30,086 bases of DNA from a virus (taxonomy: Duplodnaviria; Caudoviricetes), in IMG/VR virus record IMGVR_UViG_3300049725_000013, positions 1 through 30,086 of that record; one strand, given 5' to 3'. The translations under genes and the position numbers were made by a program. Shown one piece after another: positions 2,554-28,625 of this stretch (position 1 is the stretch's first letter; each line of letters begins with the position of its first letter). Under the pieces are notes generated by a model. The model saw only the letters and a program-made list of their open reading frames with translations, did no database searches and was not told where the DNA came from.

Positions 2554-5268
2554 ATGAAAACGAAATACTTTATCGCAGCGCTTATTATGTGTTCCGGGAT
2601 TGCAGCGGCTTTCCCTACAACTCCGGACACGACCAAGAAAAAAATAAGGGACCTGGTCGAAACTACTATCAAGGGCGACACGGTTTGGATAGAAGTTAAT
2701 TGCAAGATCAGTGGAGCTTGGTATTCGAAAAAGCTCAAGCTTCCGTTGACGGGCATCTTCCTCGGCGATTCATCTGTGAGTTACGCCAAGCTCAAAAAAA
2801 CCGTAGCCGGTGCCGGACTCGGCGGGGGACTGGATTCGGCTTTAATTGTTTTGGTTGACGGATCGACCATTGAAATTAATTCTGACGTACTCAGGGTTAA
2901 GGATGCTGGAATAGACTCCAATAAAATCGCTCCCCTTGCCGTGCAGACATCGGATATTGCTGCCTCTGCGGTCGGAACCGCACAGGCAAAGATGGATCAA
3001 TTTTCCAACGCATTAAAAGATTCCATACTTGGATTCACGCACAAAATCCAGGGTGCGTTGCTTGATACGGGGATCGTAGGAATAAATCATCTGACCCAGG
3101 CTGCTCGAAATGAGATCCGCAGCGGTGGAAACATTGTAAACAATCCCGGAGAGACATTAGTTCAAAACGCTGACAGCACGATCGACATAAATTGGCTTTC
3201 ATTTCTGAATCAAGGCATTTGGTCCAAGCAGGGTATTGTCATCTCTCCGACATTGGCGGGTGAGGGAACAGGCACCGTAGAACCAAACGTTATTTGGGAC
3301 GGGAACGTGCAAATCCTTGCAGCCGACAGTGTGTTTAAAATGTGGTATAGGGGGGACAACGGTGCTACGCAAAATATTTATTATGCCGAATCGATAGACG
3401 GAATTGTCTGGACAAAAATGACTATGCCTGTCTTAACTGGATATACTCAGCCGTTTGTATTTAAATATGGGTTCACTTATTATTTTTACGGATCAAATGG
3501 GAATTTGGCTGAATATACCTCATCTAATGGAATTACGTGGAGCCTGGTAACCGCCAACGCTCTTAATGTTGGGGAGGGAGGGGCTTGGGATCATCAGGTC
3601 ATAGCCAATTCATTCGTATGGGTTGAATCCGGCACGTGGCACATGCTTTATGAGGCATGCGCCAATACCAGTTACATCTATTCGATTGGACTTGCTACGT
3701 CCGCCAATGGAACGACGTGGACAAAATCATTATCCAATCCCGTGTTAACTGGATCAGGTGAATTTGGAGGGCCGTTTCTTTATAAGTCTGGCGCAACATA
3801 TTGGGTATGGGTTCATACTGCCAGTTCTGGAAATCTTCCCACTGACATACGAAGATATTATTCAAGCAACTTAACGAGCTGGACGAAATCTCCCTCGCAT
3901 CCAACTCTCAGCAGGACAACGACCGACGAGGGTGTAGGCAATTCGAGGGGGCAGATCGGCGATGTTTCGATGGTGCAAGTCAACGACAAAACATATATTT
4001 ATTATGATATAACTAATGACCAAACAAATTTTAAAATCAGTTTGGCAAAGGCTGATTTGAGCAAGTCTCAGATCGTAACCACGAGCGAAGGCACTAAACA
4101 AACTGTTGCTTCAGAAGTCATTCCAGCATTTAATGCGGCGTATTTTGATTCTTTACTGCTCAATGGTTTGGTTTTGTCATCATATGGTTCTTATAATTTG
4201 CATCTTGGTGGGGCGGATGCGGCAGTTTGTCAAGCTCAACATATATCTGTTCAAAAGGTTTTAACGGGAACGTCAAATAAGGCCGGAGAAAGTTTTTACA
4301 TTGATGGCTCGGTCGGCACTGGAACGGGCGCAGGTGGTAAAATTGTTTTTAGAACGTCTCCCGTTGGCGCTTCTGGCTCAACTCAAAACGCTCTTAGAGA
4401 TGCAGGCTGGATTGATGATGCTGGTTTTCTATCTGGTTTAAAACAACTAAATATCATGTCAAACAGCGCGGCTGGAATGATGATATATGATACCGCCAAC
4501 GTAAAAATGGGTGGGTATTTCATAAATCGAGGAGGAAATTCTTATCTTGATTATACCGGAGCGCTACAAATACGAGGTAGTGCCGGTACGGTTCCAATGA
4601 TCAATGTTTTAAGCGACACAATGGAAATTGATGTCGGTAGTTCCGGGCGAAATACAAAAATATTTAAAGTCTATGGGAAATACTACAGCGGAGGGAATAA
4701 CGGAGGAATTGTTTGCAATGACACATCAGGCGCATTGATGGGGCAGCTCATATTTGCAAGAGGAGGAAACTCGTATCTTGATTATACGGGTTCCTTTAGC
4801 GTCAGGTATGGATCGGGAAGTGGAGGGACAACATTCAAGGCTTTCTCAAACGGGAATTTAATGGTTGGTGGCACTATAGAAAGAATGACGGCGAAACTTT
4901 ATACAACCGGAGTTATGGGATGCTCAAGCACTTTTTGGGTTGGTGACAGTTCAACATACTCTTATATAGTACCAAACGGTGATCTTGTGAAGTCTTCAGA
5001 TCTGACGAAGAAAACTGGTATTTCAAATTTTGAAATCGATGGGCTATGGGAAAAATTTAAAGCTGTTAACCCAATTAATTATTCATGGAAAAACGACAAG
5101 AACAAAATAAAATACGTTGGATTTGGTGCGCAAGAATTTAATCCGGTATTTGACCCATATAGAAAATCATTGGATATTGACAACAGCAAGGTTATGATGG
5201 TGGTGTGGAAGACCATCCAAGAAGCTCAGAAGCGGATTGAAAAATTAGAGGAGAAAGTGAATCCATGA
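2554..5268 (+). CDS. Tail fibre/spike: N-terminal signal peptide, glycoside-hydrolase-like five-bladed beta-propeller, C-terminal intramolecular chaperone (peptidase S74-like)
   Basis: GAGG RBS; N-terminus MKTKYFIAALIMCSGIAAA. Propeller-type repeats FKMWYRG..IYYAESIDGIVWTK, WHMLYEA..IGLATSANGTTWTK..NPVL, YYSSNLTSWTK. Chaperone motifs SSDLTKK, NPINYSWK, GFGAQE and a terminal coiled coil (TIQEAQKRIEKLE). Confidence 0.8.
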   Translation: MKTKYFIAALIMCSGIAAAFPTTPDTTKKKIRDLVETTIKGDTVWIEVNCKISGAWYSKKLKLPLTGIFLGDSSVSYAKLKKTVAGAGLGGGLDSALIVLVDGSTIEINSDVLRVKDAGIDSNKIAPLAVQTSDIAASAVGTAQAKMDQFSNALKDSILGFTHKIQGALLDTGIVGINHLTQAARNEIRSGGNIVNNPGETLVQNADSTIDINWLSFLNQGIWSKQGIVISPTLAGEGTGTVEPNVIWDGNVQILAADSVFKMWYRGDNGATQNIYYAESIDGIVWTKMTMPVLTGYTQPFVFKYGFTYYFYGSNGNLAEYTSSNGITWSLVTANALNVGEGGAWDHQVIANSFVWVESGTWHMLYEACANTSYIYSIGLATSANGTTWTKSLSNPVLTGSGEFGGPFLYKSGATYWVWVHTASSGNLPTDIRRYYSSNLTSWTKSPSHPTLSRTTTDEGVGNSRGQIGDVSMVQVNDKTYIYYDITNDQTNFKISLAKADLSKSQIVTTSEGTKQTVASEVIPAFNAAYFDSLLLNGLVLSSYGSYNLHLGGADAAVCQAQHISVQKVLTGTSNKAGESFYIDGSVGTGTGAGGKIVFRTSPVGASGSTQNALRDAGWIDDAGFLSGLKQLNIMSNSAAGMMIYDTANVKMGGYFINRGGNSYLDYTGALQIRGSAGTVPMINVLSDTMEIDVGSSGRNTKIFKVYGKYYSGGNNGGIVCNDTSGALMGQLIFARGGNSYLDYTGSFSVRYGSGSGGTTFKAFSNGNLMVGGTIERMTAKLYTTGVMGCSSTFWVGDSSTYSYIVPNGDLVKSSDLTKKTGISNFEIDGLWEKFKAVNPINYSWKNDKNKIKYVGFGAQEFNPVFDPYRKSLDIDNSKVMMVVWKTIQEAQKRIEKLEEKVNP

Positions 5269-5519
5269 AGAAGATTGTATTTTTCTTTGCGTGTTTGACT
5301 GCTGCGTGCTTGGCGCAAGAGAAACAAGTTACCAAACCAGACAGCACAATCAAGGTCGAATTGGTCGGACAAATCATCCGAGAAATCCGTGACGAACAAA
5401 AGCAAATGACGGAAAGATATAAAACGCTGGATGATGCTGTCGCCGCGTATGAATTTTTATTAAAACGAGCCGAACAAGATACTGCCGCTGCGTCAATGCC
5501 TCGTGGAAAAGTCAAATGA
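5265..5519 (+). CDS. Small coiled-coil protein with signal peptide, coupled to the tail fibre gene
   Basis: ATGA overlap; MKKIVFFFACLTAACLA|QEKQ followed by an amphipathic helix. Confidence 0.7.
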   Translation: MKKIVFFFACLTAACLAQEKQVTKPDSTIKVELVGQIIREIRDEQKQMTERYKTLDDAVAAYEFLLKRAEQDTAAASMPRGKVK

Positions 5520-5602
5520 AACTGACCTTGAATAGATTCCCGTCAACTCCCTATGGAACGTGGGGTGTGATCATGGGGCCGGGCGTTGACACGGTTTTAT
5601 AA
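5516..5602 (+). pseudogene. 28-aa N-terminal stub resembling DUF5675-family lysis-cassette proteins
   Basis: ATGA-coupled ORF MKLTLNRFPSTPYGTWGVIMGPGVDTVL*, which matches the M.L.L.R......GT.G.L start pattern and then stops early. Confidence 0.45.
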
Positions 5603-5617
5603 ATTATTTGGGAAGGG

Positions 5618-6037
5618 ATGATCATGTTTGACGATGTTGTTGAAAATATCAAGCGCCACGAAGGATTCAGGATGGACGTTTACGAGGATTCGTTGGGGTT
5701 CGATACGATTGGCTACGGGTTCAAAATTTCCAGCTTGGACTTGACTCCCCAAGAAGCCGAAATGATTCTGCGCCGGAAGCTCATTGATCTGGCCGACAAT
5801 ATTCGAGGTCAATTTAAATGGTTTGGCCAAATGCCGGCAACCGTCCAAGACGTAGTTTTGGAAATGTGCTATCAATTAGGGATTGCCGGGTTCGCGGATT
5901 TTCGACAAACCATTGGGAGATTGACGCTTAAGGATTTCAACGGTGCCTCTGAATGTATGCGGAATTCGTTATGGTATAAACAGACTCCGGTTCGCGCCGA
6001 AGAGCTGGCGAAGAAGATGGAGGCGGTCAATGGGTGA
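5618..6037 (+). CDS. Endolysin, T4-lysozyme-like muramidase (GH24)
   Basis: Catalytic E-x8-D-x5-T pattern in IKRHEGFRMDVYEDSLGFDTIGYG; also M.YQLG..G and S.WYKQTP.RA motifs. Confidence 0.9.
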   Translation: MIMFDDVVENIKRHEGFRMDVYEDSLGFDTIGYGFKISSLDLTPQEAEMILRRKLIDLADNIRGQFKWFGQMPATVQDVVLEMCYQLGIAGFADFRQTIGRLTLKDFNGASECMRNSLWYKQTPVRAEELAKKMEAVNG

Positions 6038-6290
6038 AGGTGATTTTACAAGACCTGAAGTATGTGGTGAACCGAGACAGCAGAAACCACAGGAACCTGA
6101 ATTGATAGAACTTCCAAAGCCTTCGATCTTGCAAAGGATGGTTGCTTGGTTCGAGGAATTTTGGAAGGGGATCAGGGCTGCGTTCTCTCGCGTAAACGCT
6201 GCATATGATGAAACCAAATGGCAGAAATTCCTGGGGATAATCAGAGATTTGTTGACTCTGGCCGCAGGGATTTTCAAGCCAAAAATCTAA
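6030..6290 (+). CDS. Lysis-cassette protein with amphipathic helices
   Basis: GGAGG upstream of ATG 6030, which overlaps the endolysin end. Helices ILQRMVAWFEEFWKGI and WQKFLGIIRDLLTLAAGIF. Confidence 0.6.
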   Translation: MGEGDFTRPEVCGEPRQQKPQEPELIELPKPSILQRMVAWFEEFWKGIRAAFSRVNAAYDETKWQKFLGIIRDLLTLAAGIFKPKI

Positions 6291-6337
6291 CAGACCATAT
6301 TGCCGACATCGGCAACATGATAACAAGGAGAAATGTC

Positions 6338-6541
6338 ATGGCAGACGCAGTGAAACCAGGTTGGAAAACCTCTGAATTTTGGATGACCGCAATTACCAGT
6401 GTAATTGCGATTCTGGGAAATCTTGCAGGAATCATCCCGACTGATTTGGCGGCGAAGGTTGTCGGCGTTCTAACGGGACTATATACGATCCTGCGAACGC
6501 TCTCAAAACAACCGACCATTACAACGTTGGTTCAAAAGTAA
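6338..6541 (+). CDS. Putative holin (two transmembrane segments)
   Basis: AAGGAG RBS at 6325-6330; KPGWKTSEFW motif followed by two hydrophobic helices; downstream of the endolysin. Confidence 0.7.
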   Translation: MADAVKPGWKTSEFWMTAITSVIAILGNLAGIIPTDLAAKVVGVLTGLYTILRTLSKQPTITTLVQK

Positions 6542-6566
6542 TTTCTACTTATTTACCCTCCCGACA

Positions 6567-7619: not shown

Positions 7620-8153
7620 ATGTGTGATTTCGTCAGTTGGATAGATATCAAAGGGATGATTTATTTTCTGACCGATGCTGAGATATTCAGTGATTTAGGA
7701 CGCGAGAAACTGTCCGGATGCAAGGACAATGACTTTTTAGGTCATGGGGCCATCCGGAGGTTTTATGATTTAAAAGACAAAGGGGTTGACCGTGAGAATA
7801 AGAATTTCTGGGAAGAAGTATCGAATATTCCAGAAATCATCAGATCAAAATTACAAAACTTTGATCATAATTGGGGAAAAACATTCGAGGAATATTTCCA
7901 AAACGATGATCTGCGCTACATCATCGAATACGCTCCGGACGAGTGGAAATCGAAAGCATGGGAGCAGTTGCTCAAGCAATCTCCATCCAACTCAGATCTG
8001 CGCTACATCATCGAATACGCTCCGGACGAGTGGAAGAAGAAAGCATGGGAGCAGTTGCTCAAGCAATCTCCATCCAACGATGATCTGCGCTACATCATCA
8101 GATACGCTCCGGACGAGTGGAAATCGAAAGCATGGGAGCAGTTAAGAAATTAA
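7620..8153 (+). CDS. Hypothetical protein with C-terminal 29-aa helical repeats
   Basis: AAGGAG RBS; nearly three copies of NDDLRYIIEYAPDEWKSKAWEQLLKQSPS. Confidence 0.8.
   Translation: MCDFVSWIDIKGMIYFLTDAEIFSDLGREKLSGCKDNDFLGHGAIRRFYDLKDKGVDRENKNFWEEVSNIPEIIRSKLQNFDHNWGKTFEEYFQNDDLRYIIEYAPDEWKSKAWEQLLKQSPSNSDLRYIIEYAPDEWKKKAWEQLLKQSPSNDDLRYIIRYAPDEWKSKAWEQLRN
7902..8143 (+). repeat. 87-bp in-frame tandem repeat, about 2.8 copies
   Basis: Units start at 7902, 7989 and 8076 and are nearly identical at the DNA level. Confidence 0.95.
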
Positions 8154-11117: not shown

Positions 11118-11757
11118 TCTGCAAAAAATTGAACCCGAAGTCGCGGAAGTCATTAACCGTATGCCGGACTTCCCAGCTATCACGAAACAAGAAGAGGCCG
11201 GGGTCGTGTCGAATTATCTAAATGACGTGGTTTCCCTGCGGAAACGGATTACGGATTTCTTCCGGCCCGACATCGACAAGGCGCACGAACTCCACAAGTC
11301 TCTTCTGGCCAAGATGAAACAAGTTGACTCCGGCCCGGCCCAGGCCGAATCCAAATTCCGGAGTATGATCACCCAATGGTTACAGCGTGAACGAGAGCGA
11401 GTCGCCGCCGAACAGAGAAAGCTTGACGAAGAGGCACGGAAGAAAGCCCTGGCCGAAGCCAAGAAAGACGGTGATGCAAAAACCGTCAAAGCCATTGAAA
11501 CCGGCAAGATCGCGGTCGTTTCCGAGCGGGCTCCGGAGCCAGTTGCCAAGGTAGAAGGTGTTTCCACGCGGGAGTATTTCAGCGCCGAAGTGATCGACCT
11601 CATGGCATTGGTCAAGGCCGTGGCCGCTGGCAAGGCTCCGCTTGAATACCTCGCGGCGAATCAGATCGGTTTAAATGGCGTCATGCGTGCTACGAAAGGC
11701 CAAGCGGTCATTCCGGGTGTCCGCGCCAAACGCGAAGACGGGATCATGAAGCGATGA
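11110..11757 (+). CDS. Coiled-coil recombination-module protein (Gam/Gp157-like)
   Basis: Long coiled coil then VEGVSTR...EV.D and IPGV motifs; follows the SSAP and exonuclease genes. Confidence 0.55.
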   Translation: MSDLQKIEPEVAEVINRMPDFPAITKQEEAGVVSNYLNDVVSLRKRITDFFRPDIDKAHELHKSLLAKMKQVDSGPAQAESKFRSMITQWLQRERERVAAEQRKLDEEARKKALAEAKKDGDAKTVKAIETGKIAVVSERAPEPVAKVEGVSTREYFSAEVIDLMALVKAVAAGKAPLEYLAANQIGLNGVMRATKGQAVIPGVRAKREDGIMKR

Positions 11758-11826
11758 CCTGGAACGATCCCAAAAATTCTGACGAATGGGAAATTGGACG
11801 AACTCACTCATGAACCGGAGGGTAGG

Positions 11827-12213
11827 ATGACTGGAAAAGAAAAGAGGAGCGTCAAGTTCGACCTGACGCACGACGAACTCTTCAAGGCCGGCCAGGATCT
11901 GGCGCGGTTGAACTCGGACATCCTGAACAAGGAGAACGACAAGAAGACCGCGGTGGCACAGTTCGACTCCGAGCTGAAGAGGATGAAGGGCGAGATCGAG
12001 GCCATCGCGCGGACCGTCCAGAATGGATACGAGTATCGGACCATCGACTGCATCCTGTACTACGATGACAAGAACGACAAGGTCTTCGTGGTCAATCCTA
12101 ATACCGGGGAGGTCTACGCGACACGGGACGCGATGGAGTCCGACCGCCAGTACGACATCTTCGACGAGATCATGCGGAAGAAGGTCGAGAAACTCATGGC
12201 ATCTTCGAAGTAA
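11827..12213 (+). CDS. Hypothetical coiled-coil phage protein
   Basis: GGAGG upstream of ATG 11827; strong C/G third-position bias. Confidence 0.7.
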   Translation: MTGKEKRSVKFDLTHDELFKAGQDLARLNSDILNKENDKKTAVAQFDSELKRMKGEIEAIARTVQNGYEYRTIDCILYYDDKNDKVFVVNPNTGEVYATRDAMESDRQYDIFDEIMRKKVEKLMASSK

Positions 12214-12220
12214 GCATAAC

Positions 12221-12285
12221 AGCCCTGACCGGCAAGGAAATTTTCGTCCCACCACGCGGGCTTTTGGGATCGGTCGGTCAGGGTT
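12221..12285 (+). ncRNA. Intergenic structured element
   Basis: 13-bp stem AGCCCTGACCGGC/GTCGGTCAGGGTT (two G-U pairs) with inner GTCCCA/TGGGAT pairing. Confidence 0.35.
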
Positions 12286-12313
12286 ACCCAATTATGAAAG
12301 GAAAAGAAAGTCC

Positions 12314-12589
12314 ATGAAACCTGGCACCCAGGTCGTATACATCCCAAGGTACGCTGATGGAAAACTTTTCCACCCCGACATGGAATACGGGTTCGTCACC
12401 AAGGACTGCGGAGACGACAACCACTTCGTTCGATACTGGTACAAGGACACCGACGAACTCCGAACCAAGTCCTGCTCGGAGAAGACGCCGAACGACTGCC
12501 TCCACGAGATGGATTCGAGGAAGCGCAAGCTGGTCCAGAAGACGATGGAGAAGATATTCCAAGAGAACGTCGGAGAGGCCATTGGATGA
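12314..12589 (+). CDS. Hypothetical protein (small beta-barrel-like)
   Basis: MKPGTQVVYIP...YGFVT...FVRYW; GC3-biased codon use. Confidence 0.65.
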   Translation: MKPGTQVVYIPRYADGKLFHPDMEYGFVTKDCGDDNHFVRYWYKDTDELRTKSCSEKTPNDCLHEMDSRKRKLVQKTMEKIFQENVGEAIG

Positions 12590-12677
12590 AAAAGTAAGTC
12601 CGTAATACGTCTTATTGTTTTTGAACGTTTAAAACCATATCTCCTTCGTCGTAACGTTAAAATAGGAGGCCTGTTCA

Positions 12678-13088
12678 ATGAAGGTTAAGAACTCCACGAC
12701 ACCCACGAAATGCACATATCCTCCCTGCCGGAATATGAGAGCCAAGAATAGCCTCTACTGCGCGGAAGGGAAGTGCCGAGGCAAGATGTTCATCTACAAC
12801 CGAGAACTCAAGAAGCGCGAAGCGAAACAACAGGCGATCATCGACAAGGAAAACAGGCGGCGCAATAACCAAGTCCGCTTCACGGCCTGGTACGCGGCCA
12901 ACGCTTCCGATTTCAACTGGGTCGTCGATTTCCTCAAAAAGAATCAATTCCGTATCACCGGTCGCATCATCATCGAATTGCTTAGGAACGACGAGAAGCA
13001 TCCGCGCCGAATCCCAAACAACTGGGAGAAGGCGGTGAACGACTACGTCAAATCACTAAAGGATACCTATCGATTGGAGGAGAGATGA
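12678..13088 (+). CDS. Basic hypothetical protein with N-terminal Cys cluster
   Basis: AGGAGG RBS; CTYPPC...YCAEGKC. Confidence 0.65.
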   Translation: MKVKNSTTPTKCTYPPCRNMRAKNSLYCAEGKCRGKMFIYNRELKKREAKQQAIIDKENRRRNNQVRFTAWYAANASDFNWVVDFLKKNQFRITGRIIIELLRNDEKHPRRIPNNWEKAVNDYVKSLKDTYRLEER

Positions 13089-13282
13089 AGCTCCAAATAA
13101 CAGATGAGAGAAAGAAATGCCTCATGTATGGGTGTGATAACCAACCAAGCATCATGCCGGAGTTCGAGGGATTCTGCGAACGGTGCTTCGAGGAAGTCGA
13201 GGCGATCAGGCGGATGAAGCAAGAACCCAAGAAAAAACCGTTTGCATTTTTAAAAAGGTTTCGTATATTAATATTATCATGA
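13085..13282 (+). CDS. Small Cys-containing protein
   Basis: GGAGGAG RBS, ATGA overlaps at both ends; CLMYGC...CERC. Confidence 0.55.
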   Translation: MKLQITDERKKCLMYGCDNQPSIMPEFEGFCERCFEEVEAIRRMKQEPKKKPFAFLKRFRILILS

Positions 13283-16671: not shown

Positions 16672-17286
16672 ATGAAGAATAGCGCGATCGCCGCATTGTT
16701 TTTATTGATGTTTTGGAATAAAAGTCAAGGGCAGGACATAGTCGGAACAGGATGGAATGACCCCGTTGATTCGCTTCGGATGGTCATGGAGGGCATGAAA
16801 TCTGAGGCGAGCCTTGACAGTTCGCTCATTCGGCAACTGTTTGCCCTTGAAGGCGAACAGAATTCTAAAATTGCAATATTGCAAAAAGACCGTGTCACTC
16901 TGGTAAATAGGGTTGAGACGATGCGTGGTCGAATTGCAGAATTATCGGATTCAGTGAGATTCCGTTGGGAGTTTGTTGACTCACTGTTTAACCAACGCGC
17001 CAAGATGAGCGATACGTCTATTTCTTGCAACATCACAGATCAACTCCAAAAGTTTGTCCTGAATTGGAAACCAGGGAAACCGCAAAACGACACTCCGGAC
17101 AGTTTCCAAGTTGGCATTATTAGGATGGTTCCAGTTGATACGATCTGGCCGCAGAAATGGCCCTATCAATCTGAGTATTATGACACATTGGAAATTTATG
17201 CGGGACGTGATACAGCGGTAATATTTGTATGCCGGGCGATAAATGGGGGAAAGGTTTCTCCAACAGTCCCGGCGAGACGGAAATAA
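16672..17286 (+). CDS. Secreted protein: signal peptide, coiled coil, FN3-like C-terminal domain
   Basis: AAGGAG RBS; MKNSAIAALFLLMFWNKSQG|Q; LNWKP...DSFQV...F.CRAIN..G.SP pattern. Confidence 0.65.
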   Translation: MKNSAIAALFLLMFWNKSQGQDIVGTGWNDPVDSLRMVMEGMKSEASLDSSLIRQLFALEGEQNSKIAILQKDRVTLVNRVETMRGRIAELSDSVRFRWEFVDSLFNQRAKMSDTSISCNITDQLQKFVLNWKPGKPQNDTPDSFQVGIIRMVPVDTIWPQKWPYQSEYYDTLEIYAGRDTAVIFVCRAINGGKVSPTVPARRK

Positions 17287-19557: not shown

Positions 19558-19590
19558 CATTAATCCAGGGAAAGGCTATATTCAACCATG
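19554..19590 (+). promoter_or_regulatory. Sigma70-type promoter, probably giving a leaderless mRNA
   Basis: TTGACA (19554-19559), 17 nt, TATATT (19577-19582), ATG at 19588 with no SD. Confidence 0.65.
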
Positions 19591-20547
19591 AAATGGAAGA
19601 ACATAACCGTACGCCTGGGCGATTTGAAGCCGTGGGCGGACAACCCCAGGATGAGCACCAAGAAACAGGCAGAGCGAATCCTTGCATCGTTTAAGAAGTT
19701 CGGTCAGGTCTATCCAATAGCCATCGGCCCGAAGATGGAAGTTTACGACGGGCATCAAAGGCTTTCCGCGCTTTTAACGATCCACGATGAAAATTATCAA
19801 ATCGAAGCCCGAAAACTTGAAAGATGTTTGACCGACAAGGAACTCCGGGAATTTGTGATTTTGATGAACGGGACGGCAATGGGTCAATTTGATTGGGATT
19901 CATTGGCGAATTGGGACGCCAAGGAACTGATAGACTTCGGCATGGATGAGGATATTTTGCATCAATTCAACAACGACGCGGCCAATCTAAGAGAACTCCT
20001 AACAGGTGATTGCTTTGCCATCGTAGAGGAGTTTGTGGAACGATACACAAACATCGCGCTGGCAGGTTTGCAGTATGAATTTTTTTTGCCTGCGCTACAA
20101 AAACAAAAACCTTTTCTGCTAAACACAAGAATTTATTCTTGTATCCTTATAAAGAACGACATCCCTTATCGATGGCGTGGCCGATACAATGAAGATACCG
20201 ACCTTTCTCTTCGTGCCTTAAAAGACGGGTATTGCACCTTTTTAAGCCAGCAGTTTATATGCAAGAAAATCACTACAATGCAAATGAAAGGCGGGAATAC
20301 CGATGAGCTATACAGGCAGGATTTGAATTTTGACGGCCGTCTTGAAATGGCAAAGTCTCTTCAACGTCAACACCCGGAAGTGACTACAATCAAATGGAAA
20401 TGGGGACGCTGGCAACATGTGGTAAATTATAAGCCATTTGCCAACAACCGCTTGATCTTAAAAAAAGGCGTGAAGATTAAACAAGGGATCGATAATCACG
20501 GATTGGTATTGAAAAAGCTCAACCCATCGGGAGTCCCAGACAAATGA
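19588..20547 (+). CDS. ParB/Srx N-terminal domain fused to the C-terminal half of a GREB1-like (TET-associated) glycosyltransferase
   Basis: LKPWADNPR, FG...PI, DGHQRL and N...G.FDW (ParB); then E.FV.RY.N.ALAG.QY, NTRIYSCILI, WRGRYNEDTDLSLR.LKDG.CT and MKGGNTDELY (GREB1-like). Confidence 0.75.
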   Translation: MKWKNITVRLGDLKPWADNPRMSTKKQAERILASFKKFGQVYPIAIGPKMEVYDGHQRLSALLTIHDENYQIEARKLERCLTDKELREFVILMNGTAMGQFDWDSLANWDAKELIDFGMDEDILHQFNNDAANLRELLTGDCFAIVEEFVERYTNIALAGLQYEFFLPALQKQKPFLLNTRIYSCILIKNDIPYRWRGRYNEDTDLSLRALKDGYCTFLSQQFICKKITTMQMKGGNTDELYRQDLNFDGRLEMAKSLQRQHPEVTTIKWKWGRWQHVVNYKPFANNRLILKKGVKIKQGIDNHGLVLKKLNPSGVPDK

Positions 20548-20984
20548 CTAAACCAGTAAAGCCGGAGGACAAAAACAAAGGAGGGCGGCCCGTATCCGTT
20601 TGGACACCTGCGCGAATTCAAGAAGTCGTTGGCTTGATGGAAGCATACACCGAAAGCGAACCCATTCCTACCATGTGGGGCTTTGCTTACAAGAACCGAT
20701 TAAACCGCACGCAACTTTACAAATATCCAGAGTTAAGTGACACCATAAAAAGGATGGAAGACAAAGCCGTCGATCAGTTGATTCGCGGGGGTCTTGCAGG
20801 AAAGCTCAATCCAGCGGTTACGATCTTCACACTTAAAAATCATGGGCTTAAAGATTCTCACGAAGTAACACTTGAAAACGATGCCGAAACAAAGGCATTG
20901 ACCGCCAAACTTGCCGGGTTATCAAAAAAGGCATTGGAGAAGATCGCATTTGGAAACGATGACGGCCAAGGCTCTACTCAGTAG
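20544..20984 (+). CDS. Terminase small subunit
   Basis: GGRP start, PT..GFA, and IF.LKN.G..D motifs; directly upstream of the large subunit. Confidence 0.75.
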   Translation: MTKPVKPEDKNKGGRPVSVWTPARIQEVVGLMEAYTESEPIPTMWGFAYKNRLNRTQLYKYPELSDTIKRMEDKAVDQLIRGGLAGKLNPAVTIFTLKNHGLKDSHEVTLENDAETKALTAKLAGLSKKALEKIAFGNDDGQGSTQ

Positions 20985-22419
20985 AACCGCCAAGATCGTT
21001 TTGGCGCAGCGGGACTTTTGGAGTTTTTGTAAAGTCCGTGAACCTGGGTATTATCGGGAATCAAGGACGCATCTCAAATACCTTTGCACCATCTTGAATA
21101 ATTTCTATCATCGTTTACCCCTTGATGAAACAGGCAAGATTTACACGCGGATCATGATCAACATGCCGCCACAGCACGGCAAAACGCGGACGCTTATCAA
21201 TTTTTCCATGTGGGCGCTCGGGAAAAACAACGAAGATCGAATCATATCAGCCTCTTACAATGACACGCTGGCCTATGAATTTTCGAAATACACCCGAGAC
21301 GGTATCGCCGTTCAAAAGAACCAAGAAAGTGAAATCGTATTCTCGGATATTTTTCCAGGGACAACAATCAAGAAAGGATCATCATCTTACGACCGCTGGG
21401 CGTTGACAGGCCAGCATTTCAATTATCTGGGCGCTGGCATGTGTGGATCAATCACCGGCAAGGGCGGGACAATCCTTCTTATCGACGACCCTCTGAAAAG
21501 TGCCTTTGAAGCCACAAACGAGGCAGGGCTTGAAAAAACGTGGATATGGTATAATTCGACTTTTCTTTCTCGCGTCACGTCCGAGGGGGTAGCAAAAGGC
21601 GGGGAACCGCTTGAAATCATCTGCATGACGCGCTGGTCAAAGAAAGATTTATGCGGTCGAATTCTTTCCGATCCAGAACAGGCCGGGGATTGGTTCGTCA
21701 TTAAAATGGAAGCTTACAACGAAACTACCGGCGAAATGCTTTGCCCTGAATTCATGTCAAAAACAAGGTATCTTCGAAACTACTCAATCGCCCGTAAGAA
21801 TCCGATCATGCTTTCCATCTTTCGCGCCAATTATCACCAGAAACCGGTTGACATCGCCGGGCGGCTTTATCCGAAACTTAAACGATACGAACGTCTCCCG
21901 ACAGGTAACGATGGAACCATTCTTTTTGATTCGATTGGCGCTTACATCGATACAGCCGACGAAGGCAATGATTATCTCGCGTGTGGAATTTATCTCAAGT
22001 TCGAACGGATCGCCTACATGCTCGATATTTACTACACCCGCGACGCGATGGAAGTCACTGAACGGGAAACGGCGAGACGATTGTTTGATTTCGGTGTCAA
22101 CATCGCGTTGGTCGAAAGCAATTCGGGAGGCAGGGGATTCGCCCGGGCGGTCAAGCGGATTCTTTATGAAGAATTCGAAAGCCGCAAGACGATAGTAAGG
22201 TGGTTTCACCAAAGCAAAAACAAAATATCCAGAATCACGTCAGAATCGGCCAATGTCATAGAAAATATCATTTTCCCCGTTGATGCCGAATCAAGGTGGC
22301 CGGAGGCGATGGAGCACATCAATTCATTCCAATCAAATCCACCTTGGGAACATGACGACGTTGAAGACATGATCACCGGAATCGCTGAACGTATCAATCG
22401 TAACCTTGTGGAGGTTTGA
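20959..22419 (+). CDS. terL: Terminase large subunit
   Basis: Walker A MPPQHGKT, GSITGKGG, Walker B LLIDDP, MTRW; nuclease motifs YIDTADEGND, ESNSGG and HDDVED. Confidence 0.95.
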   Translation: MTAKALLSRTAKIVLAQRDFWSFCKVREPGYYRESRTHLKYLCTILNNFYHRLPLDETGKIYTRIMINMPPQHGKTRTLINFSMWALGKNNEDRIISASYNDTLAYEFSKYTRDGIAVQKNQESEIVFSDIFPGTTIKKGSSSYDRWALTGQHFNYLGAGMCGSITGKGGTILLIDDPLKSAFEATNEAGLEKTWIWYNSTFLSRVTSEGVAKGGEPLEIICMTRWSKKDLCGRILSDPEQAGDWFVIKMEAYNETTGEMLCPEFMSKTRYLRNYSIARKNPIMLSIFRANYHQKPVDIAGRLYPKLKRYERLPTGNDGTILFDSIGAYIDTADEGNDYLACGIYLKFERIAYMLDIYYTRDAMEVTERETARRLFDFGVNIALVESNSGGRGFARAVKRILYEEFESRKTIVRWFHQSKNKISRITSESANVIENIIFPVDAESRWPEAMEHINSFQSNPPWEHDDVEDMITGIAERINRNLVEV

Positions 22420-23933
22420 AAGTGATCACCCAACAGGATTTAATCAACTGGAAAATCAAGACCAATGCTCCAAAATCCGATGAGGAGATACTCAAGGAAC
22501 TCATCAACGAAGACCGGAAATCCGCCGTTAAAAAACGGATGAACGAAGGGGATGAATATTATCGCCTCAAGCACGATATTTGTGATCGTCGAATTATGTA
22601 TATCGACGGGACCACCTTGAAAGAAGACAAGCTCGCCACGAACAACCGGCTCGTCCATCCATTCCATCGAAACCTCGTGGACCAGAAAAAAGACACGATC
22701 CTTTCGAAACCGCCCTCTATTGATTGCGAGGATGAAACGCAGAAAGAAACGATCATGGGGTTGATCGACGGGATGACGATTGAGGATGATAATCTCAAAA
22801 ATCCCAAAAAGGAATACAAGAACTTTCTCAGGAAATTCACGTCCTTGTTAAAAGGTGCCAGCAACAAAGGCGTTGAATGGATCAACGTGTACCGGGACAA
22901 GACCGAAGGCGCTCCGATTCGTTGGGCTGTGGTAGATGCCAGGCAGTGCATCCCCATTTGGGAAACGGTCTATCAAGAGAAACTTTCAGGGATGATCCGG
23001 TATTATTCCGTTTCAACGACCATCGCGTCCGACGAATCCCAGGATTTGATAACCGCCGAATGGTGGGACGATAAAAACGTGAGGCGGTTCCAGCAGCAAA
23101 GCGATGGGTCGTACCTGCTATTAAGCACGGAACCTCATTGGCAGGTGGTGTTTTCGGGAAATGCCGAACCGCAACCGAATTCATTGGGGACTGTTCCTTG
23201 GATCCCCGTTGCAAACAACGATGAATACATCACAGACCTTGAAGCCATTAAATCATTGATCGACGATTACGATTTACTCACGTCGGATCGGTCAAACACA
23301 TTGACCGACCTTCAGGACGCGATTCTCGCTGTCAAGGGTTATGAAGGCGATAGCGAGGTTGAGCTTCGATTGAAGATCAAGCACAATAAAATCATCCGTC
23401 TTTCAACGGACTCGGAAGCCGATGCGAAGGCGATTACGTATGAACCCCCTTCCCAAGCCCATACCGAACATCTCGACAGGGAAGAGCGCGACATTCACCT
23501 TTTTGGCCGAGGCGTTAAAATGCGGTCCGATGAGGCCGGTGGGAATCCTTCTGGCGTTGCCCTTAAAATGATGACGACGTGGCTTCTTCTTAAATGCTCC
23601 GCCGCCGAAGCCGGGTTGTCGATTGCCTTCTCGCAATTGGTTTGGTTCATCACGGAATACCTGAAAGAAAAGGGAATAAGTTACGATCCATCCGCCATTT
23701 CCATCAAATTCAATCAAGCGTTGATTCTCAATGAAAGCGAAGTGATAGACAACTGCGTCAACTCCAAGGGCGTTTCCGATCTTGAAACCATCGTTTCGCA
23801 TCATCCCTGGAATGTCGATCCGAAGACGGTGCTCGACAATCTTAAGAACGAAACGCTCGAACTCGCGGCCATTGACAACGCAGTCGGAACGCAGAAGATC
23901 GACAAAATGGGATTGTCCGGCGAGGGTAAATGA
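22416..23933 (+). CDS. Portal protein (SPP1 gp6-like)
   Basis: YY...HDI, NNRL.HPF...LVDQK, P.IP..NN, LIDDYD...SD..N and GNPSGVALK motifs. Confidence 0.92.
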   Translation: MKVITQQDLINWKIKTNAPKSDEEILKELINEDRKSAVKKRMNEGDEYYRLKHDICDRRIMYIDGTTLKEDKLATNNRLVHPFHRNLVDQKKDTILSKPPSIDCEDETQKETIMGLIDGMTIEDDNLKNPKKEYKNFLRKFTSLLKGASNKGVEWINVYRDKTEGAPIRWAVVDARQCIPIWETVYQEKLSGMIRYYSVSTTIASDESQDLITAEWWDDKNVRRFQQQSDGSYLLLSTEPHWQVVFSGNAEPQPNSLGTVPWIPVANNDEYITDLEAIKSLIDDYDLLTSDRSNTLTDLQDAILAVKGYEGDSEVELRLKIKHNKIIRLSTDSEADAKAITYEPPSQAHTEHLDREERDIHLFGRGVKMRSDEAGGNPSGVALKMMTTWLLLKCSAAEAGLSIAFSQLVWFITEYLKEKGISYDPSAISIKFNQALILNESEVIDNCVNSKGVSDLETIVSHHPWNVDPKTVLDNLKNETLELAAIDNAVGTQKIDKMGLSGEGK

Positions 23934-24856
23934 CCCCGCGCGACAGACTCAAGCAAGCCCTTGACGAGGCAGAGAACGAATACAACCGCCTTGAGGCCGA
24001 GCAACTCCGGACGCTGGCCTCCGTCTACCGTGAAGCGTTAAAATACGCCACGGGAAAACTCAAGGCATTGTACGACAAAATACCCGAGGATGCGCTTCGA
24101 TCCAAACGAATCGCGGCATGGCAGGCTTATCGGCGAGAGGTTGCCAGGGAAATAAAAGAGCTCACCGGAAGGATGATCAAGATCGAATCCTTGGCCATCA
24201 TGGATCAATTCGAAACCGCGTATTACATGAACGGCTGGGCGATGGAGACTACCTTCGGTACTGACCTGGGATTCGTGGGACTCAATAAAGCGGCAATCAT
24301 CGAAGCCGTGAAAAACGATTATTCAAAAGTGTCCTGGTTGAAATCGCAACAAACTGAACAGGCGAAAGCATTGTATGACCTTCGGACAACCGTCGCGTCC
24401 GGCTTTACTCAAGGAAGCCCATTCAAAGTTACGGCAAGTCGATTGCAAGGCGTGATCAGAGGCGTGGCTTATGAAGCCATGCGGATCGTTCGGACGGAAT
24501 CGCATTATGCCTCCGAAGTTGCCCGTGATCGCGTGATGAGTCGAGCCATAGCCGCCGCGCGAGAACTTGGATTCGAGGCTTCTGAGCGGTGGCGGACCAT
24601 CATCGACAAAAGAACGCATCCGACACACAAAAAGATGAACGGAGAAAAAACGGGTAAGGATGGGTTGTTTACATTCCCAGCGGGAACCGATCACGGTCCC
24701 CTTCGCGTGGAAGGGCCAGGCAGAACCGGATACGCCTCAGAAGACATCAATTGCCGTTGCACGACAACGATGTCCCTGGATGAAGTGCCGCATGGATTCA
24801 ATGATTCGACGGATGAGCCTTTCGGAGTTTGGCGGAATAGAAAGGGAATCAAGTGA
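23930..24856 (+). CDS. Minor head morphogenesis protein (SPP1 gp7/Mu gpF-like)
   Basis: RIVRTE, W....D.RT..TH..M.G and INCRC motifs. Confidence 0.88.
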   Translation: MTPRDRLKQALDEAENEYNRLEAEQLRTLASVYREALKYATGKLKALYDKIPEDALRSKRIAAWQAYRREVAREIKELTGRMIKIESLAIMDQFETAYYMNGWAMETTFGTDLGFVGLNKAAIIEAVKNDYSKVSWLKSQQTEQAKALYDLRTTVASGFTQGSPFKVTASRLQGVIRGVAYEAMRIVRTESHYASEVARDRVMSRAIAAARELGFEASERWRTIIDKRTHPTHKKMNGEKTGKDGLFTFPAGTDHGPLRVEGPGRTGYASEDINCRCTTTMSLDEVPHGFNDSTDEPFGVWRNRKGIK

Positions 24857-25086
24857 ATCAACAAACCGAAACCATCCTTTCGACGCTCGATCCCTTGGAA
24901 GTCGTGGAATGTTTGATAAAACGAGAAATCATCAATCGGCATGCCGTGAGAAATTTTTTCATTAAAAAAGATTATGCTGAAATGAGAAAGAATTTATCTC
25001 CGTCTGATTCTAAAAGACTTCTTATGGACAAATACAATCTTGGATTTAAAACCATTGAATATATCGTTTATCAATCAAAGAATTAA
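24853..25086 (+). CDS. Small Mor-like HTH protein (putative late regulator)
   Basis: RN..I...Y......L..KYNL...TIE.IVY pattern. Confidence 0.6.
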   Translation: MNQQTETILSTLDPLEVVECLIKREIINRHAVRNFFIKKDYAEMRKNLSPSDSKRLLMDKYNLGFKTIEYIVYQSKN

Positions 25087-25104
25087 TGTCCTCTTAAAAT
25101 AACT

Positions 25105-25232
25105 ACCTAAACTTTTTAGGTTTCCTCCCTTCTTTAAAAAAGACATATTTCCATTAACCTATTTTCGGTCCTCTGGTATCTCCGACCGACATCGGAGAGA
25201 CGGCTACGCGGACGAACCCGCGATCTTATTTA
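25105..25232 (+). promoter_or_regulatory. Structured leader of the scaffold/capsid operon
   Basis: Inverted repeat ACCTAAA-CTT-TTTAGGT (25105-25121); hairpins TCTCCGA/TCGGAGA and CGCGG/CCGCG. Confidence 0.45.
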
Positions 25233-25261
25233 AACGAAGCACGAAATCAAACGAGGGAAAC

Positions 25262-25939
25262 ATGAAGATTGAAGAAGTCATCGGAAGCGAAACGTGGGCG
25301 AAGATTCCCGCCGACATCCAGAAGTCGATCAGCGAAAAGATCGGCACCAGGAGTTTCGTCGAGGACGACGGGAAGATGATCCCCAAGCATCGGCTGGACG
25401 AAGTGATCGGCGAGCGCGAAGGACTTAAGACGCAGTTGGCCGAGCGCGACAATCAGATCAAGGCCATTTCGAAAGACCTTGAGAAGATGAAGCCGCTCGC
25501 CCAGGAAAACGAAACCGTTAAGGCCGAGATCGTCAAAATGCAGGAAACGATCACCAAGACACAAACCGAAGCCTCCGAGAAAATCAAGTCCATGCTGGTC
25601 GATACCAAGATCAGGGAATCGCTCATTTCCAAGGGACTCCCAGCCGATGCCATCGACCTATTGACACCGAAGTTTGACCGCAAGAGAATCGTGGTCAGCG
25701 AGGACAATTCTTCCGTGGCCGGAATCGACGATCAAATCGCGACCCTCGAAAAAACATTTCCAACGGCCTTTTCAGGGAAACCGACGCAGGTTGGAACAGG
25801 ATTCCAACCCGGAAGATCTCCGAATTTGGATGGAGTATTCACCCGCGATGAACTTTCCAAGTTGACGAAGGAACAGCTTCGCGATCCCAAGGTACTCGAA
25901 AAGGCAAACAAATCACTTGCCGCAATCCAGAAAAGCTAA
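25262..25939 (+). CDS. Capsid scaffolding protein (GP20-like)
   Basis: IPK.R.DEV..ER..LK.QL.ERD.QI motif, coiled coil, GIDDQI..L....P..F; lies before the major capsid gene. Confidence 0.85.
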   Translation: MKIEEVIGSETWAKIPADIQKSISEKIGTRSFVEDDGKMIPKHRLDEVIGEREGLKTQLAERDNQIKAISKDLEKMKPLAQENETVKAEIVKMQETITKTQTEASEKIKSMLVDTKIRESLISKGLPADAIDLLTPKFDRKRIVVSEDNSSVAGIDDQIATLEKTFPTAFSGKPTQVGTGFQPGRSPNLDGVFTRDELSKLTKEQLRDPKVLEKANKSLAAIQKS

Positions 25940-25949
25940 GGAGTAAACG

Positions 25950-26819
25950 ATGTCCGCAAACAATTTCATCCCTGAAATATGGTCCGCGAACGTGACTGTG
26001 GCTAAAGAAAACGCCAGTGTCGCCGCCGGTGTCTGCAACCGATCCTATGAGGGAGAAGTCAAGCAGGGCAACACCGTCCGCGTCAACCAGATTGGCGACG
26101 TGACAATCAACCAGTACACCAAGGCCACTCCCGCGTCCCCGGCTACGGTGCAAATGCTTGATGCCGCGCAAACCGTCTTGACCATCGACCAGGCCAATGA
26201 TTTTTATCTCGGCGTGGACGACATTGACGCGATCCAGGCCAATGTACCGTTAATGCAAGGGTACACCCAAAAAGCCGGGTACGGTCTGGCGAACACTCAG
26301 GATTCGACCATCCTCGGCCTCTACGCCCAGGCACTCTACACGAAGTACAAAACCGGAACCGATCCCGTTGACTTGACCTCCTTGAACGTCGAAGATACGT
26401 TTCTCTCCATACTGGAAAAGTTCCTCGGGTTCAGGAACGTCGATCCCAACCGGATTTTCTCGATCATCCCTGCTTGGGTGCATTCGAAACTCGTCTTGGC
26501 GGGAATCGCCAATATGACCGACAACGTCAATCTTTACAAGCAAGGAGGATTTGCGGGGAAGATGCTGGGGTTCAATTTCTACATTTCGAACAACGTTTCC
26601 GCGTCCAGCACGACCACGTGGGCGGACACGCGGATCATCTGCGGGGTTGAGGGTGAATCAATAGCCTTGGCCGACCAGATCAGCAAGATGTATCCCGGCC
26701 ACGTCGAGGGCACGGCCGTCGAGACCATCTTCGGCCTGAACGTATTCGGCGCCAAGATCATGCGGCCCGATCTGACCGTCACCCTTCACGCCGACAAGAC
26801 CGCCGAACCGTCGGTGTAA
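25950..26819 (+). CDS. Major capsid protein (HK97 fold, P22 coat-like)
   Basis: AAGGAG RBS; NNFIPEIWSA, NR.YEGE...G.TV, LTIDQ, VDDID..Q, GF..Y.SNN and GL.VFGAK..RP motifs. Confidence 0.92.
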   Translation: MSANNFIPEIWSANVTVAKENASVAAGVCNRSYEGEVKQGNTVRVNQIGDVTINQYTKATPASPATVQMLDAAQTVLTIDQANDFYLGVDDIDAIQANVPLMQGYTQKAGYGLANTQDSTILGLYAQALYTKYKTGTDPVDLTSLNVEDTFLSILEKFLGFRNVDPNRIFSIIPAWVHSKLVLAGIANMTDNVNLYKQGGFAGKMLGFNFYISNNVSASSTTTWADTRIICGVEGESIALADQISKMYPGHVEGTAVETIFGLNVFGAKIMRPDLTVTLHADKTAEPSV

Positions 26820-26849
26820 CTCGAAATCAGAGAAACGAGGAGAATTTCA

Positions 26850-27194
26850 ATGTCTGAAACCGTCGTTACCGCGACGAAGTTGACCAAAGACACCGGATCG
26901 GTCAGCACCTACGCCGGATTGACCGCGATCAACACGTCGAACACCGGAGCCGTCCTATACCCGAAAGAAGGCCGTCTCCTTTTCTTGCTTCAATCCAGCA
27001 ATGCCGCAACGTCCTTAACCTTTGGTCCAGGAGATTACAACAACGGCAAAGAAGTCACCGTTGCCGCTACGAGCGGAGTAGAAAAAGTCTTTGTTTTGTC
27101 ATCCGACAAGGTTCAGGAATCCGACGGGTACGTTCGGTGGACGTATGCTGCCAGTTCCGCCGGATACATCGGATGCTTCATCATCCCCGAGTAA
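26850..27194 (+). CDS. Putative head decoration/cement protein
   Basis: GAGGAG RBS; 114-aa beta-rich S/T/G/A protein immediately after the major capsid gene. Confidence 0.6.
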   Translation: MSETVVTATKLTKDTGSVSTYAGLTAINTSNTGAVLYPKEGRLLFLLQSSNAATSLTFGPGDYNNGKEVTVAATSGVEKVFVLSSDKVQESDGYVRWTYAASSAGYIGCFIIPE

Positions 27195-27198
27195 GGTC

Positions 27199-27507
27199 AT
27201 GCCTGAACTCGACAAGAACATCAACGATCAACTCGCCTCGGTGAAACAAAAACGGACGAGAACCGGGAAGATTGCACCCCCAAACAATGTCCCCATTGAA
27301 CAAATCAACATCTCAGAGGACATAACCGTCGTGGAGAGGGATTCGTGGGAATTTAAACGGATCGCGGATCTCCGCAAATTGGCCCGATCAAGGGGAGTCA
27401 AGCACTGGAAACATCGAACTCGGTCCGGTTTGATCGTGGCGCTCCGCGAAAAAAACAGGATCGCGGAAGCAACCAAAAAGGCAACCAAGAAGGAAAAAAA
27501 TCCATGA
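27199..27507 (+). CDS. Basic protein with Rho-N/HeH-like domain
   Basis: IADLRKLARSRGVKHWKHRTRSGLIVAL; ATG at 27199. Confidence 0.6.
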   Translation: MPELDKNINDQLASVKQKRTRTGKIAPPNNVPIEQINISEDITVVERDSWEFKRIADLRKLARSRGVKHWKHRTRSGLIVALREKNRIAEATKKATKKEKNP

Positions 27508-28625
27508 AGAAGATCATCGTTTCGCTCTTCGTCGTCCTCGCTTTCGTGGCGTTCGTCGTTCCGGCAAATGCCCAGCTGAATGCGTGGGCGAACTTTTATA
27601 CCCGGTGCATGCTCAATGCCGGATGGACGCAATCCGACATTTACGGGATTCATCTTCCGAAGATAGCCGGAACATGGTATTTCGTCGATCCCGATACAAC
27701 GACATTTTACGGACGGTACACCAACGACGGCAAGACTCTCAAGACCGCATTCTCCGGGATCGATCAAGCATACGACGCTGTAACCGACGGGGCCGGAGAT
27801 GGAATCGTTTTGATTTCCCGCGTAACCGGTTCGACGACCACGAGTTTCATCATGCCTAAAGGATTGGTTTGGGCCAAGTCGAATTGCACAATATTTGGCC
27901 TGGCTTCGAGAGAAGGATACAATGGGCGCGTGAGGATTTCAGTTGGTTCTACCGGGGATTCGTTGGCGGCATTGTTCTACTTCACCGGTCGCGACATCGA
28001 GGTCGATAACGTCTCTTTCGTGAACGTCGTCGATTGCCAAACCTACTCTGGGATGCAGACCACCCAACACGGGGCAATCCAGGTCAGTTCGCCGCACCTT
28101 CATTTCGTGAATTGCTATTTCAACGCCTATGAGGTGAATACGGCTGGGTCAAGCATCAACACCTACGCCGCGTATTTGACACCTGGGGTTATTCGGCATG
28201 CGGGCGCGGATGAATGCACGTACGATCGATGTTTCTTTGGTTCCAGTTCCTATGATCCTGGGAACACGGCCTGCGCTTGGATTTACAACGACGGCGCGGA
28301 CGCGCAGAATTTTTATAACGACTGTGTATTCCTTCAGCAGGTCGGTTCCGGAACAGCATTCGGCGGTTATAAAAACTCCGCGATCACGGTCTTGAACGGC
28401 CTCGACTTCTTCCGTGGATGTACGTTCGGTATTTGGCGGGCGAGCACGCATGCCAATATCGCCGCGACATGGATGATTGGCTCCACGCCGACGACGGGGA
28501 ACATCGTCATGACGGGGTGCACTTTCTTCGGATTCACACATTTACAAGTTCAGGGTGCCGCGACGGTGTGGACGGATAAGCCTGCCGGTGCCGTGGATGG
28601 TGGTGTGACCGTTTCGGCTTATTGA
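27504..28625 (+). CDS. Right-handed beta-helix (pectin-lyase-like) head-module protein with signal peptide
   Basis: MKKIIVSLFVVLAFVAFVVPANA|Q; WYFVD...DGKT..TAF..I..AY.A....GDGIVL cap; repeated F.NC.F, YDRCFF, YNDCVF, FRGCTF strands. Confidence 0.75.
   Translation: MKKIIVSLFVVLAFVAFVVPANAQLNAWANFYTRCMLNAGWTQSDIYGIHLPKIAGTWYFVDPDTTTFYGRYTNDGKTLKTAFSGIDQAYDAVTDGAGDGIVLISRVTGSTTTSFIMPKGLVWAKSNCTIFGLASREGYNGRVRISVGSTGDSLAALFYFTGRDIEVDNVSFVNVVDCQTYSGMQTTQHGAIQVSSPHLHFVNCYFNAYEVNTAGSSINTYAAYLTPGVIRHAGADECTYDRCFFGSSSYDPGNTACAWIYNDGADAQNFYNDCVFLQQVGSGTAFGGYKNSAITVLNGLDFFRGCTFGIWRASTHANIAATWMIGSTPTTGNIVMTGCTFFGFTHLQVQGAATVWTDKPAGAVDGGVTVSAY

Follow-up and report, generated by a model that had tools for sequence, protein, structure and literature searches.

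Predicted export and possible O-glycosylation of tail fibre and head appendages in a tailed phage

Introduction

The particles of tailed phages are generally regarded as assembling entirely in the cytoplasm, where known S74 fibres fold; these fibres are not known to carry leaders. The viral contig IMGVR_UViG_3300049725_000013 (Caudoviricetes), analysed here over its whole 30,086 bases and called the window, has a tail fibre gene, a small gene overlapping it, an orphan gene and a head-module beta-helix gene that all begin with Sec-like export leaders. For this phage we predict appendages that are exported, are likely to be O-glycosylated and dock at lysis, a reading that we favour on balance. 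The leader feature itself is real, conserved and surprising.

The nearest published precedent comes from prophages of Porphyromonas gingivalis. In the available part of PMC10367356, prophage genes are likewise predicted to use host Sec with Gln at +1 (the Q-rule); their function is unknown, they are read as envelope modifiers, and that part makes no claim about fibres, virions or glycosylation. The Bacteroidota substrates of O-glycosylation and the Q-rule, in the accessible portions of PMC8729774 and PMC5837995, have the leader, Gln at +1 and motif in common with the window's proteins. The motif, D-(S/T)-(A/I/L/V/M/T), is the B. fragilis O-glycosylation site and is modified only on exported proteins, according to the same portion of PMC8729774. 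Known Bacteroidetes substrates are cell-envelope proteins, whereas the window's proteins come from genes of phage structural modules with strong Shine-Dalgarno (SD) sites.

The fibre 2554 (genes are named by their first position) resembles S74 fibres and tailspikes (PF13884) in its C-terminal S74 domain with SDxxxK, its place at the end of the tail module and its modular distal domains, and differs from them by its Sec-like leader and an excess of motifs. K1F endosialidase and the T5 fibre are examples of the S74 chaperone in the available part of PMC10769870, which also describes Bdellovibrio MAT fibres as having a signal peptide, a conserved 130-residue beta-rich domain after it, a trimeric fibre and S74 self-cleavage apparently outside the cytoplasm. 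The MAT fibres are chromosomal bacterial adhesins, whereas 2554 is a phage gene in a morphogenesis operon.

Virion glycoproteins are described for the archaeal viruses HFPV-1 and HRTV-DL1, and some structural proteins of HRTV-DL1 are glycosylated; the route is N-linked or unknown, HFPV-1 is enveloped and HRTV-DL1 is unaffected by loss of aglB. Export of appendages is not described in the portion of that source available (PMC10384203), and signal peptides are not mentioned in the corresponding portion of PMC11946311. In the full-text literature searched, a scope outside which most subscription papers lie, we found no description of exported or host-glycosylated tailed-phage virion proteins.

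Sec-like leaders on four genes

Leaders were called by a rule of our own, not by SignalP, written after the four N-termini had been seen: a basic N-region, an eight-residue hydrophobic stretch and a small-x-small site. It marks exactly four of the window's 41 genes, the same four open reading frames (ORFs) that the original prediction had said begin with signal peptides, and their coordinates and N-termini were as claimed.

2554..5268, + strand: tail fibre, 904 amino acids (aa); leader at about residues 1-19, no Gln; S74 domain at 815-867; 9 motifs
5265..5519, + strand: small protein with leader and Gln, 84 aa; overlaps the fibre stop codon; 2 motifs
16672..17286, + strand: orphan protein with leader and Gln, 204 aa; follows a RuvC-like gene; 6 motifs
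27504..28625, + strand: right-handed beta-helix with leader and Gln, likely head spike, 373 aa; loop motif D152-S153-L154

All four start with ATG behind a purine-rich site. Gln directly follows the cleavage site in 5265, 16672 and 27504, the three proteins for which it had been claimed, and is absent in 2554. The opening 60 codons of 2554, 5265 and 27504 contain no SD-led internal start. Across loci, 41 of 54 leader ORFs have Gln after a candidate site, where 5.8 would be expected. None of the 110 rows of core genes matched by window genes has an ATG leader (22 terminases, 15 portals, 22 MuF, 8 scaffolds, 22 capsids and 21 adaptors; ATG starts only). The further claim that the phage's other proteins are leaderless holds for capsid, portal and adaptor; the remaining tail proteins were partly checkable, tail genes being missing from the contig.

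The tail fibre and its slot

The C-terminus of 2554 matches PF13884 at 28 bits against a cut-off of 22, with SDxxxK at the start of the domain, and the protein also matches the phrog_1980 tail fibre. Its parts run from the leader through an N-terminal docking-like segment and shaft, a propeller (about residues 220-515, GH43/GH130-like, a widespread domain) and a distal shaft to the S74 chaperone-protease. Of the nine motif sites, the shafts contain eight, the propeller one and S74 none. Two records of cultured phages matched over 11-15% of its length, and a single-sequence model was unusable (predicted local distance difference test, pLDDT, 30).

The fibre gene is the last of the tail module and the only fibre-like gene at the contig's tail end. 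It follows tail-tip genes syntenic with those of loci L043, L172, L177 and L183. In the related siphophages L172, L177 and L183, the gene after the distal-tail homologue, which we call the slot gene, carries a leader and Gln. The L172 slot protein gives no alignment to 2554 (best E 0.29) yet bears a leader, so the cargo of the slot has changed while the leader stayed. It contains 20 motifs against 6.7 expected. Pooled, the four slot proteins, of which those of L177 and L183 are incomplete at the locus end, hold 40 motifs against 18.2; in twelve leaderless tail proteins encoded nearby the count is 22, where 21.2 are expected.

By eye, the mature N-termini of the slot proteins begin with a similar short segment, which also starts a leaderless gene of L186, and the gene before each slot gene ends in a similar acidic motif. 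In the window that preceding gene is:

2047..2541, + strand: distal tail-like protein; no leader; short acidic repeat at its end; candidate fibre docking partner

In L172, L177 and L183 the leader-bearing slot gene comes after an orthologue of this gene, whose product has a similar C-terminal motif. By analogy with other phages, the N-terminal segment and the preceding acidic C-terminus of this hand-picked alignment may form a docking pair. A predicted complex of three fibre N-termini with the distal tail C-terminus scored 0.00, which speaks neither for nor against such a pair.

From its gene position, 5265 is likely to be a co-exported helper of the fibre. No relatives of it were found, and its Atlas look-alikes are small viral hypotheticals (0.81-0.85), a lead only. 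Its Cys-15 has an atypical context, which on visual inspection we did not take for a lipobox. The original prediction had made fibres of all four leader proteins, which fails for 16672: it adjoins a RuvC-like resolvase gene outside any structural module and is not fibre-like. One part of it is helical and the C-terminal part is weakly FN3-like (template modelling score, TM, 0.34-0.49 by query), and among 56 candidates, covering proteins of 112-357 residues, its only relative was itself. It is likely to be an exported envelope protein rather than a fibre, and is likely to be glycosylated and to act in the envelope.

Spanins carry a retained transmembrane segment or a lipoprotein anchor. Neither 5265 nor 16672 has a hydrophobic 19-mer after the leader (0.15 and 0.96), and both have Gln after the cleavage site; the spanin reading of these two proteins was rejected.

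The head-module beta-helix

The model of 27504 is a right-handed beta-helix with a pectin-methylesterase-like fold (pLDDT 73). Its structural matches are generic beta-helices only (best TM about 0.4), and its sequence has no match in the PDB or in cultured phages. The family comprises 103 rows, with 5'-cut and short rows excluded; 27 members have a leader and 76 do not. Among loci with at least 1.5 kilobases (kb) upstream (30 had less), the gene lies at most three genes from a capsid-like gene in 54 of 67, comprising all 14 leader-bearing loci and 40 of the 53 leaderless ones. The phages with a capsid-adjacent beta-helix vary in head type, from SPP1-like to podovirus-like portals. It is likely that 27504 is a head spike.

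The leader of this family has been gained or lost repeatedly. On a quick tree it needs eight changes, six of them forced by strong branches; for the 69 short-loop forms with the loop excluded it needs four, two of them forced, and a single leader clade among these forms is rejected (approximately unbiased test, p 2e-71). Two tree neighbours, L115 and L041, have near-identical mature starts, one being leader-bearing and the other leaderless. Further leader-bearing members have an N-terminal motif in common with leaderless ones, though this is not clear for the window's own subgroup. The loop motif D152-S153-L154, scored with C and F also allowed at +1, is present in 22 of 27 leader rows versus 1 of 76 leaderless rows, and within short-loop forms only in 22 of 23 versus 0 of 46. 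As an aside, the gene after the capsid gene of L177 (7180-8217) has a leader-like start that our rule missed, and joins a mature N-terminal motif found in some beta-helices to a different body.

From sequence, export of the leader-bearing appendages is very likely. As a claim of the original prediction, export is well supported for the tail fibre and the head-module beta-helix by their anatomy, synteny and conservation.

O-glycosylation motifs

Pooled, the four leader proteins contain 19 motifs against 5.7 expected (p 8e-6), the consensus being that of Bacteroidota. The other 37 genes contain 18 against 19.6. Control motifs in the same four proteins stand at 4 against 2.8 for E-(S/T)-h and 7 against 5.7 for (S/T)-D-h, h being hydrophobic. 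Compared with shuffles, 2554 has 9 motifs against 3.3 (p 0.004), 5265 has 2 against 0.2 (p 0.017) and 16672, the most motif-dense of the four, has 6 against 0.7 (p 0.0005, the floor). The motif claimed for all four leader proteins is in excess in these three; in 27504 the overall count is at chance (2 against 1.4, p 0.43). The leaderless lysozyme also reached p 0.034, as one of 47 ORFs tested.

An extended form of the motif fits 26 of the 28 D-(S/T) sites in the four leader proteins. A reading as N-glycosylation was rejected, since N-(S/T)-h falls below expectation (0.70) and N-x-S/T occurs 5, 0, 2 and 2 times.

Leader-bearing proteins in other phages and in virions

The excess extends to 24 leader ORFs outside the beta-helix family (three from the window; one leader-like terminase excluded), which hold 105 motifs against 37.6, with five control motifs at ratios of 0.70-1.25. 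In 30 loci picked by their adaptor, overlapping the earlier loci in part, 12 ORFs with leader and Gln hold 36 motifs against 17.7, 20 leader ORFs without Gln hold 33 against 32.0, and 449 other ORFs hold 438 against 390.

In the 43 kb analysed of Cellulophaga phage phi18:3 (KC821620), 12 proteins have the GenBank note 'experimental MS/MS proteomics' (MS/MS, tandem mass spectrometry). Three of them, gp085-087, have a leader and Gln by our rule, with the Gln at residues 20, 21 and 20, and are annotated as structural. Like the window, this is a tailed phage with leader and Gln on such proteins; unlike it, phi18:3 infects a member of the Flavobacteriia, makes no use of SD sites (2 of 38 starts) and shows no motif excess. 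The likeness is one of leader and Gln. No discussion of the gp085-087 leaders was found in the literature searched. The export step could be tested in this cultured phage.

Several further leader proteins were noted in related loci. In L043, whose beta-helix is leaderless, a 555-residue protein with leader and Gln (11491-13155) lies between the beta-helix and adaptor genes and has 29 motifs against 6.6, many in tandem repeats. The podovirus-like phage L027 (1702-3372 and 10001-20441) has six leader-and-Gln genes in its morphogenesis module, among them an S74 fibre with 17 motifs; its terminase has a leader-like TTG start. An endolysin-like protein with leader and Gln in L158 (18260-18805) is followed by a lipoprotein-like gene. 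Small leader-and-Gln proteins (140-170 aa, 1-4 motifs) recur between head genes and adaptor, also in phages with a leaderless beta-helix, and are possible exported capsid decorations:

L072 2170-2676
L074 2174-2665
L116 5712-6158
L129 2878-3300
L140 1978-2397
L144 4192-4620

Discussion

Fibres and decorations can attach to finished particles in vitro (T4, P22, lambda). In the scheme that we favour, the leaderless head and tail core would assemble in the cytoplasm, while the fibre 2554, probably its helper 5265, and the likely head spike 27504 would pass through Sec. Signal peptidase I would remove the leader and pyroglutamate could form; folding and S74 self-cleavage would take place in the periplasm, where host O-glycans may be added at D-(S/T)-hydrophobic sites. 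The appendages would then dock by their mature N-termini on finished particles once lysis mixes the compartments. Incorporation of the exported appendages into virions is likely, and their glycosylation is plausible. For glycosylation, as originally predicted, the support is statistical, a motif excess that is not universal among leader-bearing phage proteins.

A number of observations count against this scheme. The leader calls rest on our own rule, and the scheme is predicted for this phage from sequence alone. In related loci, a major capsid gene (L154) and a terminase gene with a TTG start (L027), both outside the 110-row core count, also have leader-like extensions, although the two proteins must work in the cytoplasm. 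In the beta-helix family, 19 of the 22 loop-motif leader forms are one clade, independent pairs for the loop motif number two to three in the same direction and none in the opposite (p 0.25), and the whole-protein motif ratio is 1.40 with a leader versus 1.41 without. Motif excess is missing from the available part of the L177 slot fibre (4 against 6.2), from gp085-087 of phi18:3 (3 against 9.8) and from 24 leader-and-Gln proteins among 149 propeller relatives of 2554 (77 against 73.3; sequences without genomic context). The docking-segment alignment was hand-picked, and its profile gave no further members among 8,549 sequences. Of the host signals, SD-like sites precede 27 of 41 window starts (hand-chosen; background 10%), against the 2 of 38 in phi18:3; the metagenome-assembled genomes (MAGs) that contain relatives are labelled Planctomycetota, Spirochaetia and Syntrophomonadaceae; and the phages with the best-matching cultured terminases, at 41-45%, infect Bacillota.

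The lack of motif excess in phi18:3 and the propeller relatives suggests that export of virion-type proteins is wider than glycosylation; the two are separable. The fibre-like propeller relatives with leader and Gln but no motif excess include P0063, P0076, P0094, P0124-P0126, P0141 and P0166. Against cultured phages, P0126 and P0141 had no match and P0163 matched over 50 residues only.

In the major capsid gene of L154 (14819-16060), a leader-like stretch of 37 in-frame codons comes ahead of an internal ATG, which matches the start seen in the family; two isoforms are possible.

An alternative that we consider unlikely is that the leader proteins are exported and never bound to virions, serving in envelope remodelling or shielding, as a superinfection block, as decoys or in egress. 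It is the best fit for 16672, outside the structural modules, and the MS/MS note on phi18:3 could come from co-purification. The P. gingivalis prophage Q-rule genes are read as host-surface modifiers in the part of PMC10367356 available, and that of PMC11576556 proposes a role in egress for the sheath-like proteins that tailed viruses of archaea secrete. Gene position argues the other way for the appendages: 2554 is the sole fibre-like gene at the tail end and the same slot is leader-bearing in three relatives, while the beta-helix stays beside the capsid gene with or without a leader, and some leader forms of it share a mature N-terminal motif with leaderless ones.

Less probable still are appendages that are exported and virion-bound but unglycosylated, the motif then being either a habit of beta-rich fibre structure or a relic of host origin. 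This would fit the absence of excess in phi18:3 and the propeller relatives, the ratio of 1.41 in leaderless beta-helices, and a host that is probably outside Bacteroidia, where no report of the glycosylation system was found. However, only the order with D first and the hydrophobic residue last is enriched, with flat controls. The residues after D-(S/T) match the published set, with 26 of 28 sites fitting the extended motif, the presence of the surface-loop site tracks that of the beta-helix leader, and the L043 protein has many of its motifs in tandem repeats.

Least probable of the alternatives is that the leaders serve as inner-membrane tethers for assembly in the cytoplasm, or that internal starts bypass them, with virion forms made in the cytoplasm: the L154 capsid and L027 terminase would fit, as would the P. 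gingivalis phage capsids whose predicted signal peptides are thought to be cut by prohead proteases (the available part of PMC10367356), but the basic N-region, short h-region, small-x-small site and Gln at +1 fit signal peptidase I, three of the four genes lack an SD-led internal start, and the motif excess is left unexplained, since published glycosylation is on exported proteins only.

The host bears directly on the predicted glycosylation. SD use at 27 of 41 starts points away from a Bacteroidia host. In the portion of PMC10783764 available, Bacteroidetes are generally without SD use, and Calditrichae (51%), Fibrobacteria (37%) and Ignavibacteria (32%) have it. The Q-rule applies to Bacteroidetes and to Ignavibacterium album (Q-value 77%) and is not FCB-wide (FCB, Fibrobacteres-Chlorobi-Bacteroidetes), according to the accessible part of PMC5837995. 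Literature reports of D-(S/T)-type O-glycosylation were found for Bacteroidia only, and none for SD-using FCB lineages. We infer an SD-using lineage of the FCB group from these sequence signals. The FCB-group host of the original prediction keeps the support of the Gln and motif patterns, which is partly circular. The MAG labels conflict with one another and sit on short or wholly phage-like contigs, the genome scan having given two MAG loci.

More tentatively, the exported, O-glycosylated and lysis-docked appendages predicted here may belong to a broad, repeatedly evolved class of tailed phages that splits morphogenesis between cytoplasm and periplasm by means of a swappable leader, with a Bacteroidota-type system outside Bacteroidia; we think this possible, if short of probable. 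The leader would then be a swappable module on head spikes, decorations and tail fibres, virions would wear host sugars, and the motifs would reveal Bacteroidota-type O-glycosylation in SD-using lineages outside Bacteroidia. If the scheme is right, the Sec route adds a second compartment to Caudoviricetes assembly. Fibres could gain host glycans, disulfides and pyroglutamate caps, and receptor-binding or enzymatic parts would be kept out of the cytoplasm until lysis. Cytoplasmic expression of such fibres is predicted to give misfolding or no glycans. We suggest that leader, Gln at +1 and motif excess, taken together, could mark the hosts of uncultured phages.

Contig layout and other genes

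All recognised genes of the window are on the + strand. Tail-end genes occupy 51-5519. Beyond them come a lysozyme gene, genes for replication and an SPP1-like head module that includes the terminase; its portal, MuF, scaffold, capsid and adaptor genes keep the SPP1 order.

51..1667, + strand: tail-tip-like protein; no leader; L043 and L172 homologues lie directly after tape-measure-like genes
5618..6037, + strand: phage lysozyme (PF00959); no leader
20959..26819, + strand: SPP1-like head module (large terminase, portal, MuF, scaffold, major capsid); no leaders
29314..29892, + strand: head-tail adaptor; no leader; served as clade marker

The contig has no terminal repeat, and no tail tube, neck or tape measure genes, which syntenic phages have. 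In L043 and L172 these genes occupy the interval from the adaptor gene to the gene 51 homologue, which suggests that several kilobases are missing from the contig. Each sequencing run containing at least one fifth of the words in the fibre region is a peat metagenome; three studies are represented, and one of them may be the source. Runs X5-X7, with shares of 0.06-0.13, do not count as evidence of expression.

The genes at 1664-2050 and 2047-2541 lie in tandem and are paralogues (40% identity); the first ends some 35 residues before the C-terminal part of the second and is possibly a truncated duplicate or a frameshift. The gene at 7620-8153 encodes three near-identical helical repeats of no confident family. 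At 19588-20547, adjoining a DNA methylase just upstream of the terminase, a ParB-like domain is fused to a TET-associated glycosyltransferase-like domain, probably for DNA modification. Residues 198-257 of gene 51 (640-820) are an insertion lacking in the L043 homologue; it is weakly E1_FCCH-like and also matches the tail-tube-like gene of L172.

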